From Candidatus Magasanikbacteria bacterium RIFOXYD1_FULL_40_23 (GTDB taxonomy: Bacteria > Patescibacteriota > Patescibacteriia > Magasanikbacterales > GWA2-37-8), in assembly GCA_001783215.1 (NCBI GenBank), contig MFRA01000006.1, positions 57,968-121,967 on the forward strand: a DNA stretch of 64,000 nt, written 5' to 3'. Within the stretch, counting starts at the first letter, position 1. Each line of letters opens with the position of its first letter. Below the pieces are notes generated by a model that was not told the DNA's origin, did not search any database, and saw only the letters and a program-made list of their open reading frames with translations. Made by a program: the position numbers and the translations under genes. Below are positions 32,091-40,768 of this stretch, piece after piece.

Positions 32091-32783
32091 ATGAAATTCG
32101 ATATCCTTACAATCTTCCCAAAGTTTTTTGAAAGCTTTAAAACAGAAGCTTTAATTTTACGCGCACAAAAAAAGGAATTAGTTGAAATCAATATTCATAA
32201 CCTGCGCGATTATGCCGATGATGCGCGTGGTACAGTAGATGATAGGCCATACGGCGGTGGGGCTGGAATGGTGCTTATGTTCCCGCCAATTTATAAAGCC
32301 ATAGAAAAAATAAAATCAAAGATAAAAGGAAAAAGTAAAAAAACCAAAATAATTGTTTTTAACCCAAAAGGAAATAAATTTACTCAAGCCATGGCGCGCG
32401 AGTGGTCTAAGTTAGATAGAGTAGTTATGGTTTGTGGTCGCTACGAAGGTATAGATGAGCGAGTTATGACAGAGCTCGCCGATGAAGAAATATCTATCGG
32501 AGATTATGTTTTGTTTGGCGGTGAAGTGCCTGCCATGGTAGTTATGGAAGCAGTTACCAGACTGATACCTGGCGCTATTGGTAAACAAGAATCACTTAAA
32601 GACGAATCGTTTAATGATGCGGGAGAAATGGGTAGGGAACAGTTAACAAAATTTATTGAGTATCCTCATTATACTAGACCGGAGGTTGTGGTTGTAAAGA
32701 AGAAGAAAGTAAAAGTTCCGGAAGTTTTGCTTTCCGGTGATCATAAAAAAATAGAAGAGTGGCGAAGAGAGCAGAGTAAGTAA
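32091..32783 (+). CDS. trmD: tRNA (guanine37-N1)-methyltransferase
   Basis: Classic 'MKFDILTIFP' start and the SPOUT-knot region 'SIGDYVLFGGEVPAMVV'. Confidence 0.88.
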   Translation: MKFDILTIFPKFFESFKTEALILRAQKKELVEINIHNLRDYADDARGTVDDRPYGGGAGMVLMFPPIYKAIEKIKSKIKGKSKKTKIIVFNPKGNKFTQAMAREWSKLDRVVMVCGRYEGIDERVMTELADEEISIGDYVLFGGEVPAMVVMEAVTRLIPGAIGKQESLKDESFNDAGEMGREQLTKFIEYPHYTRPEVVVVKKKKVKVPEVLLSGDHKKIEEWRREQSK

Positions 32784-32986: not shown

Positions 32987-33640
32987 TCAGCGAGCAATCT
33001 TGAGGCCGAGATGGCTCAGGGCTCGTATCGTGGTGGTGACGGCCGAAGGTTCGGAGATCGAACCATTCATCACCATCTCGAGCCATTGCTCGAGTGAGAC
33101 AAGCCGAGTCTCGATGTCTTCGTTCTCGTCCAGCTTGGCGGGTCCGACCTTCTTGCAGCCGGTTGCCAGGAAGCAGTGGAAGCGGGTGGGTGAGCTACGA
33201 GTGCTAATCCAGCCGAAGCCCAGATAGACCATGAGCTCGGGTACGTAGCCAGTCTCATCGCGTAGTTCGCGACGCATCACCTCTTCGGGAGATTCGCCAA
33301 ACTCCGCAGTTCCTGCCGGTAACTCGTCATCGACGGCATTGCGTCCCTGCTTGAACTCAGACACCACCAGCACCTGCCCGTCGCTGGTGATGGCAAGGCA
33401 GACGGACCAGTCGCGTTGGGCGAACTGCACGTAGTCTTGGATCTTGCCCGACTTCGGGTTAAGGAACTGTTTGACGATGAGCTTCTTGCCGAACTTGCCG
33501 GCCAGAGTCACATCTTCGCCGACTTGTTTCCAGGGCACGATTGCCATTGTGCTCTCCAGTTTGCGTGAGGGTTGGCTGCTTTCAGTGAGTGCAAAGCGCT
33601 CGCGCCGAAAGACCCTGCACAATATCATAAAAACCGTCAT
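32987..33640 (-). CDS. NUDIX hydrolase (high-GC, compositionally foreign)
   Basis: Nudix box 'GTAEFGESPEEVMRRELRDETG'. About 60% GC against ~37% locally. The true start may be the internal Met ('MAIVPWK', ~33547). Confidence 0.7.
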   Translation of the reverse strand: MTVFMILCRVFRRERFALTESSQPSRKLESTMAIVPWKQVGEDVTLAGKFGKKLIVKQFLNPKSGKIQDYVQFAQRDWSVCLAITSDGQVLVVSEFKQGRNAVDDELPAGTAEFGESPEEVMRRELRDETGYVPELMVYLGFGWISTRSSPTRFHCFLATGCKKVGPAKLDENEDIETRLVSLEQWLEMVMNGSISEPSAVTTTIRALSHLGLKIAR

Positions 33641-33726: not shown

Positions 33727-34113
33727 TTAGACACTTAAAAACTAAGTAAAAAACCTGCAAATAAAGCACCTCAAAAATTAATTAACTTTGGCAAGTCTCA
33801 ACGCGAGAAACTACCAGTGCTACAACCTACAAATTTTTTTGTAGAGTAGCCGAGAGAAAAGAGCAATCAAGATTTGATTTCTCTTTTTTCTTTCTAGTCA
33901 GGTAACTGGAAAGAAAAAAGTTTTCCAAATGTAAAAATATTGGAAAAGTACATTGACAACACAAATGTGACAAAGACCACAAAAAAAGTCTATCCGAAAA
34001 AACTCGGGTTATTCCGAGTATAAATAATAAATAAATCCAAAAATGATAACTTGTTCATCAGCCCTTGCAGCTTCGGCTGTGTAGGGTGAACAAAAATCAA
34101 TACTCTTTTTTTA

Positions 34114-35732
<1,619 letters not shown>

Positions 35733-35964
35733 GGAGAAACTCAATCGAAAGATTGTGACTCTGTCGAGCCTGGCAACGCAAGTTGCAGAGGCGCTTGCGA
35801 TAAACTTCGGTTTATCAAAAGTTCTGAAAGGATAGAAAAATCTTTGTGTAATCTTTGTCACATTTGTGAAGTCAATGCAAGAAACTGCTTATGGCAGTTT
35901 TTTTGTTTTTGTTTGCATTGACCCTCAGTTGATTTTTTGTTATATATATTGTAAGGAGAGCGTC

Positions 35965-36189
35965 ATGTATTCATCAGATCCGCAACTCAAGTTTAATCTT
36001 TGGTCAGTGCAAATGTCTGAGCAGATGGAGCTTAATCATGTTCCTTTTACTTGGATGGAGCGATTTATAATGGGCGACGCTAAAGTTGATGCCTTTCTCA
36101 AGGCACAACGAAAGCGTTTACGCAAAAATAAACAACAACGCGAGAGAAGAAAAGCGCAAAAGAAGCTGCAAAAGAGGAGGGTCAGGTAA
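35965..36189 (+). CDS. small hypothetical protein with a highly basic C-terminus
   Basis: Strong SD (AAGGAGagcgtcATG). 74 aa ending 'RKRLRKNKQQRERRKAQKKLQKRRVR'. Translationally coupled (TAATG) to the next ORF. Confidence 0.5.
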   Translation: MYSSDPQLKFNLWSVQMSEQMELNHVPFTWMERFIMGDAKVDAFLKAQRKRLRKNKQQRERRKAQKKLQKRRVR

Positions 36190-36515
36190 TGGATAAGGAT
36201 GACCACGAGGAGCGAGATTTAGATCTTGTAGATCCTAAATTTGAAGCGCGGTTTCAAAAGGTGTTGGATGGCATACCGCCAACACCAAAGAAAGGTGACA
36301 AAATTCCTCTCAAGCAAGTTGCTGAGAGTGTGGCGCGTGTCTTGCGCGGGGATTGCTCTAATCGTGAAGTGTCGGAAGAAGAATTGCAAAACGCGCTTGA
36401 ATGGATGGGTGAGCGTGAAGAAGAGCGCAAGCAAGAACAGGTTGTGTTGTTGGTTCAAGTTGTAGGATTGGTGGTGTTTGTTGTTGCGGTGTTGTACGTT
36501 ATTTTTACAGTATAG
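36189..36515 (+). CDS. hypothetical tail-anchored membrane protein
   Basis: Acidic and charged N-terminal region with a single C-terminal TM 'VVLLVQVVGLVVFVVAVLYVIF'. ATG overlaps the upstream stop. Confidence 0.5.
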   Translation: MDKDDHEERDLDLVDPKFEARFQKVLDGIPPTPKKGDKIPLKQVAESVARVLRGDCSNREVSEEELQNALEWMGEREEERKQEQVVLLVQVVGLVVFVVAVLYVIFTV

Positions 36516-36555
36516 CTTTCCAAGGCTTGGGAGCTAAATGTAAAAGTTTATAATT

Positions 36556-36625
36556 TCTAGCCACGAGGATGTAAAATTCGTGGCCTATACAAAAACAATC
36601 TTATAACCTAAGGTTGTTTTTGTTT
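36556..36625 (+). repeat. structured hairpin + 'ctatacaaaaacaatcttataa' + terminator-like element (copy 1)
   Basis: ccacgaggatgtaaaattcgtggcctatacaaaaacaatcttataacctaaggttgtttttg. Confidence 0.6.
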
Positions 36626-36668
36626 TATTTTGCCGCTGTGATATTATAAATTTAGGAGGCAACAAACC

Positions 36669-36860
36669 ATGCGAAAAAGAAGGCGAAAGCTAGTAGCAGG
36701 TAGTGTGCTCTCTGTCGAAGTAGTCGCTCGGAAATTAGGGCCTGCTTTCTTAGATCTTTCTCTTCAGTCAGTCCGTGATGGTCTGGATGAGCAGGAGATG
36801 CAGTTGCTAGTAGCAATTGGTATTAAGTTTGATACGTCAAACTCCATTCTCAGAAATTGA
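36669..36860 (+). CDS. small hypothetical protein
   Basis: Strong SD (ttAGGAGGcaacaaaccATG). 63 aa, basic N-terminus. Confidence 0.45.
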   Translation: MRKRRRKLVAGSVLSVEVVARKLGPAFLDLSLQSVRDGLDEQEMQLLVAIGIKFDTSNSILRN

Positions 36861-36872
36861 GGTTCTATTACA

Positions 36873-36950
36873 AACTTGCCGCGAGGTGCTTATAGGTATT
36901 TCGCGGCCTATACAAAAACAATCTTATAAATTAAGGTTGTTTTTTAATTA
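36873..36950 (+). repeat. structured hairpin + 'ctatacaaaaacaatcttataa' + terminator-like element (copy 2)
   Basis: gccgcgaggtgcttataggtatttcgcggcctatacaaaaacaatcttataaattaaggttgtttttt. The stem differs from copy 1 by compensatory changes (ccacga/tcgtgg versus gccgcga/tcgcggc). Confidence 0.6.
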
Positions 36951-37083
36951 AACAAAGTCGGGCTGCATATTATTGAAACGCAGCGTGGTAAGTATTGACA
37001 AGTCGCATATTTTATGGTTGTGTGGCTATACACAATCACAAAAAAATTTCACTTGTTCCCAGTTGGGAGCGAGAGGGGGTTCA

Positions 37084-37809
37084 ATGACAAAACGAACGTT
37101 GTCAATGTTAGCAGTAGTAGTACTGCTACAGATGTTTTTTGCTCAATCCGCCACCGCCGATGATAAGAGTTTGAAGGTGGAGGAGGAGGTAAAAGACTAT
37201 AAGTGGGCATATTTTGTCGCTTTGCCGGGCTATTATTTTGGGGTGGAGATTCCGTTCCACGAAAGTATGCATGGACTTGCGGCGGCGTTTAACTCGAATT
37301 ACGATGTTGTCGAGTTTAAGCCGTATATGCATTATGACTACAATCAGAATAGGTTTCTCTTTGGTAGTGTGGTCATGGAATGTGAAAAATCGTGCTCTGA
37401 TAAAGTTGGTTTAGGCAAGATAGCTCTTGCGCCTTCCGTTATGACGTCAACACTTTTCATTACATCGGACGTGTTGCTTGCCACCAACGCGGTAGAGCCA
37501 ACCAGTGTTTCTGGTAGGGTTATGTATTTTGCTGGAATGGTTGCTCCTTGGTTAGACTTCACTTACAACACTTTTTGGGCAACAGATATTTCCGATAATG
37601 CAAAGGTCGCCGAAGGTTTTGGGATGTCGCGTTCGTCTGTGGTGGCTGGTGGCGCGCTTATTTCGGCAGTGGGAGCCTGGAGAATTTGGAGTGGGTACAA
37701 GAGAGCTTTTCCCAAAAATATTCGCGCAAAGGCCAAGGAGTCAAACGTGCTTGTCGTTCCTATGGGTGGAGCAGAAACGGTTGGAGTATCGCTCCACGTA
37801 ACATTCTAG
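37084..37809 (+). CDS. secreted HExxH-motif protein (putative zinc metallopeptidase-like)
   Basis: SD 'agggggttcaATG'. Signal peptide 'MTKRTLSMLAVVVLLQMFFAQSATA'. HExxH in 'FHESMHGLAAAF'. The ORF track begins at 36973 but the signal peptide argues for a start at 37084. Confidence 0.5.
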   Translation: MTKRTLSMLAVVVLLQMFFAQSATADDKSLKVEEEVKDYKWAYFVALPGYYFGVEIPFHESMHGLAAAFNSNYDVVEFKPYMHYDYNQNRFLFGSVVMECEKSCSDKVGLGKIALAPSVMTSTLFITSDVLLATNAVEPTSVSGRVMYFAGMVAPWLDFTYNTFWATDISDNAKVAEGFGMSRSSVVAGGALISAVGAWRIWSGYKRAFPKNIRAKAKESNVLVVPMGGAETVGVSLHVTF

Positions 37810-38000
37810 GCAATTTGCAAGGTTCGTATAATCCGGTTTTTCTCCAAGGAGATAGCCGGATATTTTTTATTTATCAATTCGTTCTCAAGAATTATAAAAA
37901 CCAGAGGGCGTTATTTAGGTGTAATTTAGTTAATCAAATAACAACCGCCCCACAGGATGGAGCGGCAAATAGGCGCAATGCCTTAAAGTAAGGAGCTGTG

Positions 38001-38189
38001 TTATTGAAGTTTCTTGCAATCCTTGTCGCCCTGCGAGCCGCTTCCATTGCCACCATCGACGGCGCCAAAGCTTATTGCGTTTGGTGTTGTAGCTCCTTGG
38101 CGACAAAGAGTGCCGCCACCTCTGCCACAGGCGGTGGCAAACACGGATAGGCACAACAGAATCAAAACACCCCTCATCGTTCGGTTCAT
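38001..38189 (-). CDS. small putative lipoprotein / secreted peptide
   Basis: 62 aa. 'MNRTMRGVLILLCLSVFATAC' signal followed by Cys (lipobox-like), then a Gly-rich tail. Confidence 0.3.
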   Translation of the reverse strand: MNRTMRGVLILLCLSVFATACGRGGGTLCRQGATTPNAISFGAVDGGNGSGSQGDKDCKKLQ

Positions 38190-38301
38190 AAGCGTTCTAC
38201 CTCCTGATTTTTATCGTAGCACGCCAGTTAGATAAGGGCAAACCATACCCCTTGATTTATTAGTTTATTTTTGTTACACTTCACTTCGTAAATTAAAAAA
38301 A

Positions 38302-38395
38302 GGCATGTAGCTCAGTTGGTTACCCGCCCGACTGAACGACTTCAGTCGTTCGGGCGGGGAGCGCGGTCGCCTAGGCGACTAATGACGAGTCATTG
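38302..38395 (+). pseudogene. decayed tRNA-Ile-like remnant interrupted by a 36-nt GC-rich hairpin
   Basis: GGCATGTAGCTCAGTTGGTTA matches the 5' third of the adjacent tRNA-Ile. It is followed by cccgcccgactgaacgacttcagtcgttcgggcggg and then a degenerate anticodon-arm-like 'gagcgcggtc...actaatgacgagtc'. No T-arm or acceptor 3' strand. Confidence 0.55.
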
Positions 38396-38414
38396 AAAAA
38401 TGTAGGTAAAAAAA

Positions 38415-38488
38415 GGGCATGTAGCTCAGTTGGTTAGAGCGCGTCACTGATAATGACGAGGTCCCAAGTTCAACTCTTGGCATGCCCA
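38415..38488 (+). tRNA. tRNA-Ile (anticodon GAU)
   Basis: GGGCATGTAGCTCAGTTGGTTAGAGCGCGTCACTGATAATGACGAGGTCCCAAGTTCAACTCTTGGCATGCCCA: canonical Ile(GAT) sequence and cloverleaf. Confidence 0.92.
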
Positions 38489-38497
38489 CACGAAAGG

Positions 38498-38571
38498 GGG
38501 TTCGTAGCTCAGTTGGTTAGAGCGTCGCATTGACATTGCGAAGGTCAGCCGTTCAAGTCGGCTCGGACCCA
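38498..38571 (+). tRNA. tRNA-Val (anticodon GAC)
   Basis: Acceptor GGGTTCG/CGGACCC, anticodon arm TCGCA-TTGACAT-TGCGA, T-arm AGCCG-TTCAAGT-CGGCT, discriminator A. Confidence 0.8.
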
Positions 38572-38674
38572 CAGTTAGAGCGTATCCCACGACGTTTTTT
38601 TGCTGTTTTGCCTAACTTGCAAAAGCTCGAATTTTCATGTAGTATAAGCATACTTAAATTATCTGGATTTTATT

Positions 38675-39280
38675 ATGGTTGATAGCCAAAAACCTAGTTT
38701 TAAACAGTCTCTTTTAATGGCCTTTGGCAGCATTGGTTTATTTTTATTAGAGCTTATAAAAGTAGCTGTTTTGGCTGGTGTGACCATTGCTTTAGTCCGA
38801 TATTTTTTATTCAAGCCCTTTTATGTAAAAGGCGCCTCTATGGAGCCTAATTTTTTTGATAAAGAATATTTGATTATAGATGAATTGAGCTATCGTTTAC
38901 GCGCACCGCAAAGAGGAGAAGTGGTAGTGTTCAAATATCCAGAAAATCCAAAAGAATATTTCTTAAAAAGAATAATTGCCTTGCCAGGTGAAAGAGTAAA
39001 AGTTTCCGAAGGGCAAATTACTATTTATAATCAAGAGCACCCAGAGGGTGTGATTTTAGATGAATCATATTTACCAGACGATTTACTTACCAGTGGCGAC
39101 AGATCTTTTGCACCTTTAACACAAGATCAATATTTTGTAATGGGGGATAATCGACCAAACAGTTATGATTCTCGTCGTTTTGGCGCAGTAGACAAAAGTT
39201 TGGTTGTTGGCAAAGTTTTTTTTAGAGGTTGGCCTTTCAGTCGCGCACAATTTATTTCCGAACCAGATTTAAATATTTAA
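38675..39280 (+). CDS. lepB: signal peptidase I
   Basis: N-terminal TM. Catalytic Ser in 'GASMEPNF', Lys region, and box E 'GDNRPNSYDSR'. Confidence 0.85.
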   Translation: MVDSQKPSFKQSLLMAFGSIGLFLLELIKVAVLAGVTIALVRYFLFKPFYVKGASMEPNFFDKEYLIIDELSYRLRAPQRGEVVVFKYPENPKEYFLKRIIALPGERVKVSEGQITIYNQEHPEGVILDESYLPDDLLTSGDRSFAPLTQDQYFVMGDNRPNSYDSRRFGAVDKSLVVGKVFFRGWPFSRAQFISEPDLNI

Positions 39281-39337
39281 ACTAACAAAATTCACGATTC
39301 ACGTATCATGATACAGGTGTATCCTGCTATATGAATC

Positions 39338-40768
39338 ATGTATTATGAACTAATTATGCCAAAGCAGAAAAAAATAGAAAAGAAAAAATTTGTAAAAAAA
39401 CCAAAATCAGAAAAGCCAAAAGCTCACGCTGAATCTGGTGCAGCAGAACGAGGTAAAAAATCCTACGCTTTGCTTCGTGGTATGCATGACATTTTGCCTA
39501 AAGAAGAAAAGTATTGGAAAGCTGCCTATCACACCGCCGAAAATTTAGCTGAGCATTTTCAGTTTGGTCGTATAGAAAGTCCGCTTCTAGAAGAGGCTAG
39601 CATGTTTGTTCGTTCCATTGGTAAAGGTACAGATGTGGTAGATAAAGAAATGTATATCTTTGAAGACCGTGATGGAAACAAGGTTGCGCTCCGCCCAGAA
39701 GAAACTGCTTCTGTTGTGCGTGCATACATTATGCATGGCATGTGGAATATGGTTCAGCCAGTCAAAATGTGGTACTGGGGATCTATGTTTAGGTACGACC
39801 GCCCACAAGCTGGTAGATTTAGACAATTTAACCAGGTAGGCTTTGAAATTTTAGGAGATGCCGATCCGGTGCAGGATGCGGAATTAATTTTAATTGCTCA
39901 TAATTTTTATAAAGACTTAGGTTTGCCGGTTGAGATTCACATAAACAGCATTGGTGTTCCAGAAGAAAGACAAAAGTATAAAACAGCTTTGGTGGAGTAT
40001 TACCGTAGTAAGCGCAGTTATTTGTGCGATGATTGCAAGCAAAGATTAAACAAGAATCCATTACGTCTTCTTGATTGTAAACAAGAAAGATGTCTCCCGA
40101 TAAAAGAAGAAGCTCCACAAATTATTGCTTGGCTAGAAGAAGAATCCAAAAACCACTTCATGAAAGTTTTGGAATATTTGGATGAGCTATCTGTTCCGTA
40201 CGTTCTAAAATCTACACTTGTTCGTGGTTTGGATTATTACACCCGCACCGTTTTTGAAGTTTATCCGGTTATGCCAGAAGGAGATGAGTCTGCGCTTGGC
40301 GCCCAAAGCGCTTTGGGCGGTGGCGGACGTTACGATTTGCTTGTAGAAGAAATGGGAGGCAAGTCTGCTCCAGCTGTAGGGTTTTCTTTGGGGGTAGAGA
40401 GATCGGTTTCGGCTCTTAAGCAATATCTAGATGCTCAACAAATTAAATTTCCAACACAGCAGGTAGATGTATTTTTGGCGCAGCTTGGAGATCAGGCTCG
40501 TCGCCGCGCGCTTAAGACCATAAATGAGTTGCGAACTTCCGGGGTGAAGGTTGCTTATAACTTTTCCAAGAACTCATTAAAGAGTCAGTTGGAAACAGCC
40601 AACAATTTACAAGTTCCTTATGCTCTTATTTTGGGTCAAAAAGAAGTTCAGGATGGCACAATTATTATCCGAGATATGGAATCAGGCGTCCAAGAAATTG
40701 TTGATCAGAAGAAAGTTGAGCACTTGCTCAAAAAGAAATTATCTCGGTTTGACGTTAATGCAAAATAA
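39338..40768 (+). CDS. hisS: histidine--tRNA ligase with a Lys-rich N-terminal extension
   Basis: Class II motifs ('YYTRTVFEV', 'GGGRYD') and a C-terminal anticodon-binding domain. About 40-aa K-rich leader 'MPKQKKIEKKKFVKKPKSEKPK'. An alternative start lies at 39356. Confidence 0.85.
   Translation: MYYELIMPKQKKIEKKKFVKKPKSEKPKAHAESGAAERGKKSYALLRGMHDILPKEEKYWKAAYHTAENLAEHFQFGRIESPLLEEASMFVRSIGKGTDVVDKEMYIFEDRDGNKVALRPEETASVVRAYIMHGMWNMVQPVKMWYWGSMFRYDRPQAGRFRQFNQVGFEILGDADPVQDAELILIAHNFYKDLGLPVEIHINSIGVPEERQKYKTALVEYYRSKRSYLCDDCKQRLNKNPLRLLDCKQERCLPIKEEAPQIIAWLEEESKNHFMKVLEYLDELSVPYVLKSTLVRGLDYYTRTVFEVYPVMPEGDESALGAQSALGGGGRYDLLVEEMGGKSAPAVGFSLGVERSVSALKQYLDAQQIKFPTQQVDVFLAQLGDQARRRALKTINELRTSGVKVAYNFSKNSLKSQLETANNLQVPYALILGQKEVQDGTIIIRDMESGVQEIVDQKKVEHLLKKKLSRFDVNAK

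Follow-up and report, generated by a model that had tools for sequence, protein, structure and literature searches.

The full-length 16S rRNA gene of Candidatus Magasanikbacteria bacterium RIFOXYD1_FULL_40_23 (contig MFRA01000006.1), which we analysed within a 64-kb stretch of DNA (hereafter the window), is followed by approximately 2.7 kb that carry five open reading frames (ORF1 to ORF5) and a fragment of a tRNA-Ile gene, and then by tRNA-Ile(GAT), tRNA-Val(GAC), lepB and hisS (Table 1). An initial annotation of the window, made from its sequence, had read this 16S-tRNA spacer as a foreign gene module captured by an rRNA operon. Our comparison with related genomes points instead to an inherited chromosomal arrangement that holds a set of putative envelope-proteolysis genes and loses them differently in different lineages, and it also reveals, inside the tRNA fragment, a 36-nt palindrome that recurs in many uncultured bacteria.

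Table 1. Features of the 16S locus, its spacer and its downstream flank (positions are those of the window).
Feature	Positions	Strand	Evidence or remark
16S leader, 5' strand of long processing helix	33931-34106	+	RNA duplex calculation
16S rRNA gene, full length	34107-35730	+	Rfam SSU_rRNA_bacteria, 1405 bits, model positions 1-1533
16S trailer, helix 3' strand with terminator-like hairpin (35879-35903) and T-run	35749-35916	+	
ORF1, 74 aa, basic C-terminus	35965-36189	+	Ribosome-binding site, TAATG overlap with ORF2
ORF2, 108 aa, acidic cytoplasmic domain and C-terminal transmembrane helix	36189-36515	+	phmmer homologues
45-nt direct repeat, copy 1, terminator-like hairpin, after ORF2	36577-36621	+	
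ORF3, 63 aa, small basic protein	36669-36860	+	Positional counterpart in L081
45-nt direct repeat, copy 2, after ORF3	36900-36944	+	
ORF4, 241 aa, multi-pass membrane HExxH protein	37084-37809	+	H59-E-S-M-H63
ORF5, 62 aa, small Gly/Cys-rich lipoprotein	38001-38189	-	Homologues at same position and strand
Duplicated unit, tRNA-Ile leader and 5' two-thirds of tRNA-Ile, disrupted	38288-38401 (114 nt)	+	Direct repeat, 114-nt spacing
36-nt GC-rich imperfect palindrome in D-loop of the fragment	38323-38358		Between GGTTA and GAGC
14-nt GC hairpin replacing 5' anticodon stem and anticodon of the fragment	38366-38379	+	
tRNA-Ile(GAT)	38415-38489	+	ARAGORN
tRNA-Val(GAC)	38498-38572	+	ARAGORN
lepB and hisS, conserved downstream flank	38675-40768	+	Pfam Peptidase_S26 E 3e-45 for lepB; synteny in 80 loci

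Rfam searches detect neither a 23S nor a 5S rRNA gene anywhere in the window, which reaches 34 kb upstream and 28 kb downstream of the 16S gene, nor in the loci of seven relatives. The short-spacer succession of 23S and 5S that defines a canonical rrn operon (16S-tRNA-23S-5S) is thus missing, and the nearest 23S gene must lie beyond 28 kb downstream or 34 kb upstream, far outside the 16S-23S distance of more than 1500 bp by which rRNA genes are classed as unlinked (Brewer et al., bioRxiv 10.1101/705046). Unlinked rRNA genes have already been reported as a trait of the whole Patescibacteria or candidate phyla radiation (CPR) clade (Brewer et al., bioRxiv 10.1101/705046), and the present locus agrees with that description in having no 23S near the 16S gene and in the retention of this state clade-wide. 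What is resolved here beyond that description is the local architecture, in which the 16S gene has a processing helix and a predicted terminator of its own and is followed by tRNA-Val/Ile, and in which the spacer carries protein genes and differs in length.

Much of what the initial annotation recorded at the locus holds: the rRNA genes are unlinked, lepB and hisS stand downstream in place of a 23S gene, tRNA-Ile is followed by tRNA-Val and not by tRNA-Ala, and the spacer contains small genes with strong Shine-Dalgarno sequences, two of them coupled, as well as a small lipoprotein-like ORF on the opposite strand. Its 16S gene is likewise present, although Rfam places the 3' end at 35730 and not at 35732. 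AGGAG-type ribosome-binding sites lie 5-10 nt upstream of all five ORFs, and the stop codon of ORF1 overlaps the start codon of ORF2 in the sequence TAATG. A Pfam search of ORF1 to ORF5 returned nothing usable.

A scan with hisS, covering a single genome for each GTDB species, yielded 80 related loci, those named being mostly from the Magasanikbacteria or Patescibacteria group and denoted here by L numbers where they must be told apart. The gene order lepB-hisS-large pilin-like surface protein is common to the 80 loci, and the order trmD-16S-variable spacer-tRNA pair-lepB is kept wherever contigs extend far enough upstream. The spacer itself ranges from 177 to 5167 nt in the 34 loci that show both the end of the 16S gene and the tRNAs, with 320 nt or less in 11 of them, 390-1000 nt in 12 and more than 1 kb in 11. 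A second variable gap separates the tRNAs from lepB, measuring 23-7687 nt among relatives and 103 nt in the window. The tRNAs that follow the 16S gene in related loci are always Val(GAC) and Ile(GAT), and the tRNA-Ile probably survives from the ancestral 16S-23S spacer. The Val gene precedes the Ile gene in most Magasanikbacteria, whereas the window and some relatives have Ile first; a comparison with L004, L005, L007, L043, L090 and others also shows the pair inverted in L043 and L090. These switches and inversions suggest repeated small rearrangements at the tRNA spot.

The sequences on either side of the 16S gene are complementary to one another. A duplex calculated between the 180-nt flanks on the two sides has a free energy of -91.8 kcal/mol, compared with -46 on average and -54 at best among ten shuffles, and it pairs positions -176 to -2 with +19 to +176 around the gene nearly end to end, with a core formed by a 35-nt inverted repeat (33951-33985 and 35843-35877). 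The same pairing is present in L081, L003, L004, L010 and L088, and it represents the classical pre-16S processing stem. Directly 3' of the trailer strand lie the hairpin and T-run of 35879-35916. The trailer box CTTTGTCACATTTGTGAAGTCAAT and the terminator hairpin are common to L081, L003, L010 and L088, the box is retained in L004, and the distant loci L033 and L021 have terminator hairpins of their own; a comparable hairpin with a T-run stands after the trailer in all the relatives we examined, even those with only 184-260 nt between the 16S gene and the tRNAs. We predict on this basis that 16S transcription ends near position 35,910 throughout the clade, with or without genes following, such that the 16S gene would form a transcription unit of its own, the two tRNAs would form another, small one, and a terminator would stand between it and the tRNAs with which a canonical operon co-transcribes it. 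Nucleotide similarity to the nearest relative, L081, runs without interruption from the Nudix gene upstream through the 16S gene to 35,883 and then breaks between 35884 and 36215.

The 16S gene is 1624 nt long, compared with 1533 model positions, and the excess is largely an expansion of about 90 nt at approximately 34193-34282 that is flanked by an inverted repeat (34178-34207 and 34268-34297). This expansion is common to L081 and L003 and is replaced by about 26 nt in L004 and L088, as judged from gaps in blastn alignments. LAGLIDADG homing-endonuclease ORFs, presumably in introns, lie in the 3' part of the 16S gene in L086 (463-996) and L090 (1867-2610) and are absent from the 16S gene of the window.

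Beyond the 16S unit, the spacer genes of the window recur at the same place in other genomes. The nearest relative, L081 (GCA_964734585.1), is 96% identical in HisS, 95% in LepB, 93% in TrmD and 98% in 16S, and it carries, in order, trmD, nudix, 16S, an unrelated 101-aa gene in the slot of ORF1, ORF2, a counterpart of ORF3, ORF4, a gene for a lipoprotein of the Trypsin_2 family, an ORF5-like gene, tRNA-Ile, tRNA-Val, lepB and hisS; its ORF2 and ORF4 are approximately 66% and 66% identical to those of the window. Candidatus Magasanikbacteria bacterium RIFOXYD2_FULL_39 encodes a protein 100% identical to ORF4, and we retrieved nine other genomic contexts of ORF4 homologues (L007, L081, L082, L086, L088 and L090-L093). 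In all six loci whose upstream side is visible (L007, L081, L086, L088, L090 and L091) the homologue lies between the 16S gene and the tRNAs; in L092 and L093 it stands immediately upstream of the tRNA pair or of lepB-hisS, and the contig of L082 begins within the cluster. Upstream of the ORF4 homologue the ORF2 family recurs, represented by one or two small membrane proteins, and the Trypsin_2 lipoprotein gene adjoins it in eight of the nine genomes, in convergent orientation except in L093, where the two genes diverge. In the window itself tblastn finds no trace of Trypsin_2, just 190 nt separate ORF4 from ORF5, and the genome has lost the gene.

The smaller genes vary in how widely they are shared. 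ORF2 has pairwise phmmer matches among the small ORFs of L081, L093, L007 and L091, and through these is linked to ORFs of L090, L088 and L082, with E-values within the family down to 1e-38. Seven members from five genomes could be aligned, and a homologue search with a profile of the family returned only five matches and no domains. Most relatives' versions have two transmembrane helices and an NLPPPP tail, and ORF2 represents the conserved small membrane partner within the cluster. ORF3 is weakly similar to its positional counterpart in L081 (67 aa; blastp E 0.029), which in turn has a homologue in L001 (61% identity, E 2e-8). The 45-nt repeat that follows both ORF2 and ORF3 recurs in the spacers of L081, L003 and L001 at 83-93% identity, even where different genes lie between the copies. 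ORF5 has homologues of 58-63 aa, on the minus strand and beside the tRNAs, in L001, L003, L007, L081, L086, L090 and L092, and these carry lipoboxes such as LLGAC. We also considered that ORF5 might be the N-terminal stump of a lost Trypsin_2 gene, an idea ruled out by the coexistence of both genes in L007, L081, L090 and L092. ORF1 has no Pfam match and no homologue in any related locus examined; it is an apparent orphan and may not be a real gene.

ORF4, the largest gene of the spacer, had been described in the initial annotation as a secreted HExxH protein. The HExxH motif is there, and a simple secreted location is not what an AlphaFold model indicates. The model, built on an alignment of 30 sequences (pLDDT, the per-residue confidence score, of 81, with a core above 90), contains a signal or anchor helix (residues 2-19), a long helix bearing HExxH (40-69), a beta-hairpin insert (73-100) and further helices at 107-133, 142-164, 171-179 and 183-208. 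With an N-terminal signal or anchor helix and four long hydrophobic helices, ORF4 is therefore predicted to be a multi-pass membrane protein. Residues H59, E60, H63, H83, C100, C104, D158 and D171 are invariant in the 30 homologues. Among 5.8 billion proteins the homologues form 31 clusters at 90% identity, all of about 240 aa and none with a Pfam domain on record, and an exhaustive profile search extended the family to 176 relatives (representatives at 50%). In a sample of 50 of these, with a mean column identity of about 17%, H59, E60, H63 and P117 never vary, and D171 hardly does. The motif H59-E60-x-x-H63 accordingly lies within a predicted transmembrane helix, as in the M50 and M50B peptidases, and is invariant in both the 30 close and the 50 distant sequences. 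D158, in the P-W-L-D-F segment of helix 142-164 and invariant in the 30 close homologues, is a candidate third zinc ligand, as is D171, which is conserved in both sets; in site-2 proteases this ligand is an Asp in an LDG-type motif of a later transmembrane helix.

Further evidence ties the family to the site-2 proteases. Among the 50 distant members, 18 match PF13398 (Peptidase_M50B) with a best E of 1.9e-8, three match PF11667 (DUF3267, 'putative zincin peptidase') and one matches Peptidase_M50. A Foldseek search of the Protein Data Bank (PDB) with the ORF4 model ranks the M. jannaschii site-2 protease 3b4r second (probability 0.89, E 0.1), and a sequence profile search of the PDB returns only RseP (7w6x, E 0.15) and MJ0392 (3b4r, E 0.24), with the alignment in either case falling on the helix that bears HExxH. 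ORF4 is most plausibly an intramembrane zinc metalloprotease of the site-2 type, and appears to be distantly related to M50 and M50B while falling outside formal Pfam membership. It resembles PF13398 and PF11667 in its length of about 200-250 aa, in a HExxH motif near the first core helix and in its several hydrophobic helices; in contrast to them, the Magasanikbacteria branch scores below both thresholds and has invariant residues of its own (H83, C100, C104, D158 and D171). The result is a newly defined small protein family, site-2-protease-like, with the 31 clusters and 176 representatives given above.

The content of the gap can accordingly be described as a lineage-specific, narrowly distributed envelope-proteolysis cluster composed of the ORF2 family, ORF3, ORF4, the Trypsin_2 lipoprotein and ORF5. 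We infer protease activity and substrate from the synteny, homology, selection pattern and HExxH conservation that we observe, and propose by analogy that an extracytoplasmic serine protease and the ORF4 metalloprotease would act, serially or in parallel, on co-encoded membrane proteins of the ORF2 type, a logic likened to that of DegS/RseP/RseA and SpoIVB/SpoIVFB; the role of such a module could be signalling or envelope quality control. The systems of Escherichia coli (RseP, DegS and RseA) and of Bacillus (SpoIVFB, placed in MEROPS M50B, with SpoIVB, SpoIVFA and BofA) share with the cluster a small multi-pass protein with HExxH in a transmembrane helix, an extracytoplasmic serine protease, whose gene adjoins that of the metalloprotease in the relatives of the window, and co-encoded small membrane proteins that are possible substrates or inhibitors. 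In contrast to these systems, ORF4 has no PDZ or CBS domain and carries a conserved Cys pair and His83 in a beta-hairpin insert, and the serine protease of the relatives is a lipoprotein without PDZ and is missing from the window genome. The ORF4 family, Trypsin_2 and the small membrane proteins together are candidates for a module of envelope signalling or quality control, in organisms about whose surface little is understood.

The age of the cluster can be read from its divergence. Between the window and L081, synonymous divergence (dS) is 0.84 for ORF2 and 1.35 for ORF4, compared with 0.69 for lepB, 0.78 for hisS and 1.03 for trmD; dS is thus similar in the cluster and in its flanking genes, which makes the two equally old. 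The ratio of nonsynonymous to synonymous divergence (dN/dS) is 0.23 for ORF2 and 0.17 for ORF4, as against 0.045 for lepB, 0.040 for hisS and 0.043 for trmD, which places the cluster under purifying selection with protein evolution 4-5 times faster than in its housekeeping neighbours. The closest relative by HisS is also the closest by ORF4, and the remaining ones are about equally distant. Several relatives hold partial versions: L001 has the ORF3-like gene, Trypsin_2 and ORF5 and lacks ORF4, the Trypsin_2 gene of L012 is frameshifted, L003 retains ORF5 alone, and L010 has nothing of the cluster in a spacer of 230 nt. Because distal genes are retained in place, the versions in L001, L003 and L012 look like deletions, and the cluster appears from these comparisons to be eroding differently among lineages. 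With Trypsin_2 missing from the window and L086 and ORF4 missing from L001, the two proteases are evidently not obligately coupled.

Taken together, these findings favour the reading that the locus is the normal, vertically inherited 16S layout of a Magasanikbacteria subclade with a decaying envelope-proteolysis cluster in it, and not a product of foreign uptake, a reading to which we assign a probability of about 0.72. The initial annotation had itself envisaged that relatives might share these genes at this position as vertically inherited core genes, and this is largely what we find, in that the genes are shared and inherited in place; they are not a universal core, as some relatives have lost them. 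A long protein-coding gap after a CPR 16S gene should accordingly not be taken for a captured island, and in Magasanikbacteria the DNA beyond the predicted self-terminated 16S unit is better regarded as ordinary chromosome that varies by lineage.

A number of observations weigh against this reading, and several of them lend themselves to other explanations. The stretch has a GC content of 0.430 compared with 0.391 for the remaining window, a difference that the initial annotation had noted correctly and that is weak, and the GC content at third codon positions (GC3) of the spacer ORFs (0.38-0.52) lies 1-2 standard deviations above the mean of 27 background genes (0.32 +/- 0.08). Together with the tRNA-Ile fragment that adjoins the tRNA, the missing Pfam annotation of the spacer genes and the several close relatives that have no module, this composition could indicate that a foreign module has entered the rrn spacer, such as what is left of an integrative element that attached at tRNA-Ile, much as had first been proposed. 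We consider such an origin very improbable. A genomic island should be absent from close relatives and diverge unlike its flanks, whereas the same genes occupy the same position in at least eight other genomes (L081 and at least seven others) and show the synonymous divergence of the flanking core genes together with purifying selection. Neither the ORF list nor Pfam gives an integrase or recombinase between 35.7 and 38.4 kb, in agreement with the initial annotation on this point, and flanking repeats of the attachment-site (att) type are missing, the sole tRNA-derived repeat lying 114 nt from the tRNA with no copy near 35.9 kb. Integration sites of phages and genomic islands in tRNA genes do resemble the locus in having a partial tRNA copy beside an intact tRNA. 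Classical tRNA-targeting elements leave a 3' piece, whereas the fragment here is a 5' piece that stands directly beside the intact gene, 20 nt away and with nothing between, and not at the distal end of the module; L081, moreover, has the module and no fragment. Position, polarity and this absence from L081 rule out the fragment as an att site of the module. Exchange within the group is harder to set aside. A mobile cassette that passes among Magasanikbacteria and is gained and lost at a hotspot between the 16S terminator and the tRNAs would account for the patchy presence of the cluster in the subclade, among genomes of 82-96% HisS identity, a pattern that fits repeated loss as well; it would also suit the unrelated genes that fill the ORF1 slot elsewhere (for example the ribbon-helix-helix-like ones in L086 and L081), the flips and inversions of the tRNAs, the rve transposase near the cluster in L088, the second variable region between the tRNAs and lepB, and the modestly raised GC3. 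We nevertheless regard it as unlikely, given that dS to the nearest relative matches that of the flanks, that the nearest relative by core genes is the nearest by ORF4, that the partial versions in L001, L003 and L012 resemble deletions of an ancestral cluster, and that no mobility genes lie inside the cluster. A chimeric assembly, in which the 16S gene of this metagenome-assembled genome was mis-joined to unrelated DNA, was also among the initial concerns. Ribosomal RNA genes are classic points of mis-assembly in metagenomes, and this general experience is all that speaks for it; the junctions trmD-nudix-16S-trailer-cluster-tRNAs-lepB-hisS recur in assemblies from independent projects (L081, L007, L088, L090, L091, L003 and L004), and complementary leader and trailer stand on both sides of the 16S gene, so that we give an artefact of this kind almost no credence.

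Other points on the same side of the balance concern function and expression. Promoters, terminators and processing are all predictions. ORF4 itself has zero Pfam matches at E up to 0.1, its nearer relatives mostly score below the M50B gathering threshold (17-20 bits, compared with 26), and its fold match to 3b4r is weak, with a template modelling (TM) score of 0.36-0.39. The adjacent site-1-type serine protease expected of a regulated intramembrane proteolysis cascade is missing from the window, as it is from L086, and ORF4 is missing from L001; no sigma or anti-sigma Pfam domains are found in ORF1 to ORF3 or their homologues, and the cluster contains no sigma factor or other evident output of a proteolytic cascade. 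It could follow that ORF4 is a structural or transport membrane protein with a coincidental HExxH, and that the cluster, which persists in some genomes lacking Trypsin_2 and in others lacking ORF4, is a set of unrelated small envelope genes. We think this improbable, if less so than exchange as a cassette. A coincidental motif would not be expected to remain invariant, with P117 and a nearly invariant Asp, in 50 sequences whose mean column identity is about 17%, nor to be the segment on which the sole PDB sequence matches, two site-2 proteases, align; the more distant members of the family are bona fide Peptidase_M50B matches, and a serine-protease gene adjoins the ORF4 homologue in most of the genomes retrieved.

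The tRNA-Ile fragment has a history of its own. The initial annotation had listed a tRNA-Ile remnant, and a partial tRNA-Ile is indeed present at 38301-38395; it is not plainly truncated, being a duplicate of the 5' part with two interruptions, and its end falls in the variable region. It is recognised as a tRNA by neither ARAGORN nor Rfam (E up to 1). The nearest relatives L081, L003 and L001 lack the fragment, which is therefore younger than the cluster and unrelated to its origin, and we interpret it as a separate, more recent partial tandem duplication that carries small GC-rich palindromic insertions. The same construction is found in three distant Magasanikbacteria (L034, L036 and L061; HisS about 65%), where the tRNA part resembles the tRNA-Ile of the respective genome, exactly so in L034 and L061, and where the 36-mer is 97-100% identical and in the orientation opposite to that of the window copy. 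The position of the 14-nt hairpin is occupied in L061 (GTCGCCGCGGCGAC) and L034 (CCCGCCTAGGCGGG) as well, with compensatory changes. That these copies might be functional tRNAs containing an intron is ruled out, as none of 22 copies in tRNA context is recognised as an intact tRNA once the 36-mer has been removed in silico.

The 36-nt palindrome itself (CCCGCCCGAACGACTGANGTCGTTCAGTCGGGCGGG or its reverse complement) has a single copy in the window and is also found in L034, L036, L061 and L094-L212. A scan of metagenome contigs for exact matches to its 30-nt core found at least 119 stretches with an exact match, and the matches listed comprise 120 occurrences in 107 distinct contexts with a host GC content of 0.29-0.59. 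No match was found in IMG/VR, GenBank phages or PLSDB plasmids, nor was the sequence found in the literature searched, and the family appears to be undescribed. Among the matches listed, the 36-mer falls within an open frame of 150 codons or more in about 30% of the contexts, and it is read in frame within RecG (twice), ValRS, LeuRS, BipA/TypA, a Mur ligase, FemAB, a beta-lactamase-fold protein and TrmD, with readings such as PARTT[DE]VVQSGG, PARLNDxSRSGG and ARPTERxQSFGR. The TrmD of L107 contains a clean insertion of 10 residues relative to that of the window, and the TrmD of L010 contains, at a different site, a clean insertion of 12 residues (PARPDASGRSGG) from a variant 36-mer (CCCGCCCGACCGGACGCCTCCGGTCGTTCGGGCGGG; L010 6074-6111); the TrmD of the window (32091-32783) is without the L010 insertion, which thus varies in presence and absence within the clade. 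About one fifth of the contexts, again among the matches listed and with flanks read by eye, are tRNA D-loops, in which the point of insertion is constant for either orientation, and an intact tRNA-Val or tRNA-Ile usually follows 20-60 nt downstream of the disrupted copy. Variants keep the length of 36 nt and the outer arms CCCGCCCGA/TCGGGCGGG and differ in the interior, and one of them shows a compensatory change in the inner stem.

We propose, at roughly even odds, that the 36-mer belongs to a hitherto undescribed family of very small insertion elements, selfish or structural, in CPR and other uncultured bacteria of groundwater and sediment. Palindromic elements are known from Rickettsia, where selfish palindromic repeats of roughly 100-150 nt lie in frame in protein genes and also in RNA genes, and GC clusters are known in yeast mitochondrial DNA. 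The 36-mer resembles these as a GC-rich palindrome in AT-rich reduced genomes that lies in frame in essential genes, lies in structured RNA genes and is present or absent among orthologues, and like palindromic elements in general it occupies many unrelated contexts, conserved genes among them whose orthologues lack it. It differs from the Rickettsia elements in being only 36 nt (12 codons) long and nearly identical across hosts, in its strong tie to 5' fragments of tRNA-Val and tRNA-Ile beside intact copies, and in its copy number: instead of many copies per genome there is one in the window and nearly always one per contig piece. A laboratory adapter or artefact is an unlikely source, with flanks that continue the gene or tRNA, a precise D-loop site and occurrence in many independent projects. 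Target-site duplications were considered and rejected, as none accompanies the insertions in ORFs and the apparent 7-bp ones belong to tandem arrays of heptamers. In L096, L111, L125, L175 and L191 the 36-mer is embedded in arrays of this kind, for example (CAGGAAC)n or (CAAGAGA)n, which mimic 7-bp duplications. Matches to group II introns lie on the same contig piece as the 36-mer in L138 and L176.

If the proposal is correct, it would imply either a site-specific mobilising activity that makes or exploits partial tRNA duplications or a function at the nucleotide level that holds the 36-mer constant. Should mobility or function be confirmed, the family would offer a second clear example, beside Rickettsia, of reduced genomes whose essential genes carry palindromic DNA in frame, and it could serve as a practical annotation marker for 12-residue protein inserts and disrupted tRNA copies. 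The 36-mer is potentially more important than the spacer cluster beside which it was found.

Other genes near the locus vary among the relatives as well. In genomes that carry the cluster, the second gap, between the tRNAs and lepB, holds a family of Cys-containing proteins of about 95-160 aa, sometimes in tandem (L091 4071-5166; L090 6014-6454; L007 3537-4700; L093 4350-4637), of which the window has no members. Distant Magasanikbacteria have a different conserved gene of 229 aa between the 16S gene and lepB, found in eight loci with 46-59% mutual identity (L019, L027, L028, L031, L039, L061, L064 and L088, for example L088 9156-9845). Between trmD and the 16S gene of the window lies a NUDIX hydrolase gene (32987-33640, minus strand) with a GC content of 0.57 and a GC3 of 0.71, compared with 0.39 and 0.32 for the window; it has 88% amino-acid identity in L081, where it is annotated on the opposite strand, and weaker matches in L003 and L010, and it is a better candidate for an old horizontal acquisition than the genes of the 16S-tRNA spacer.

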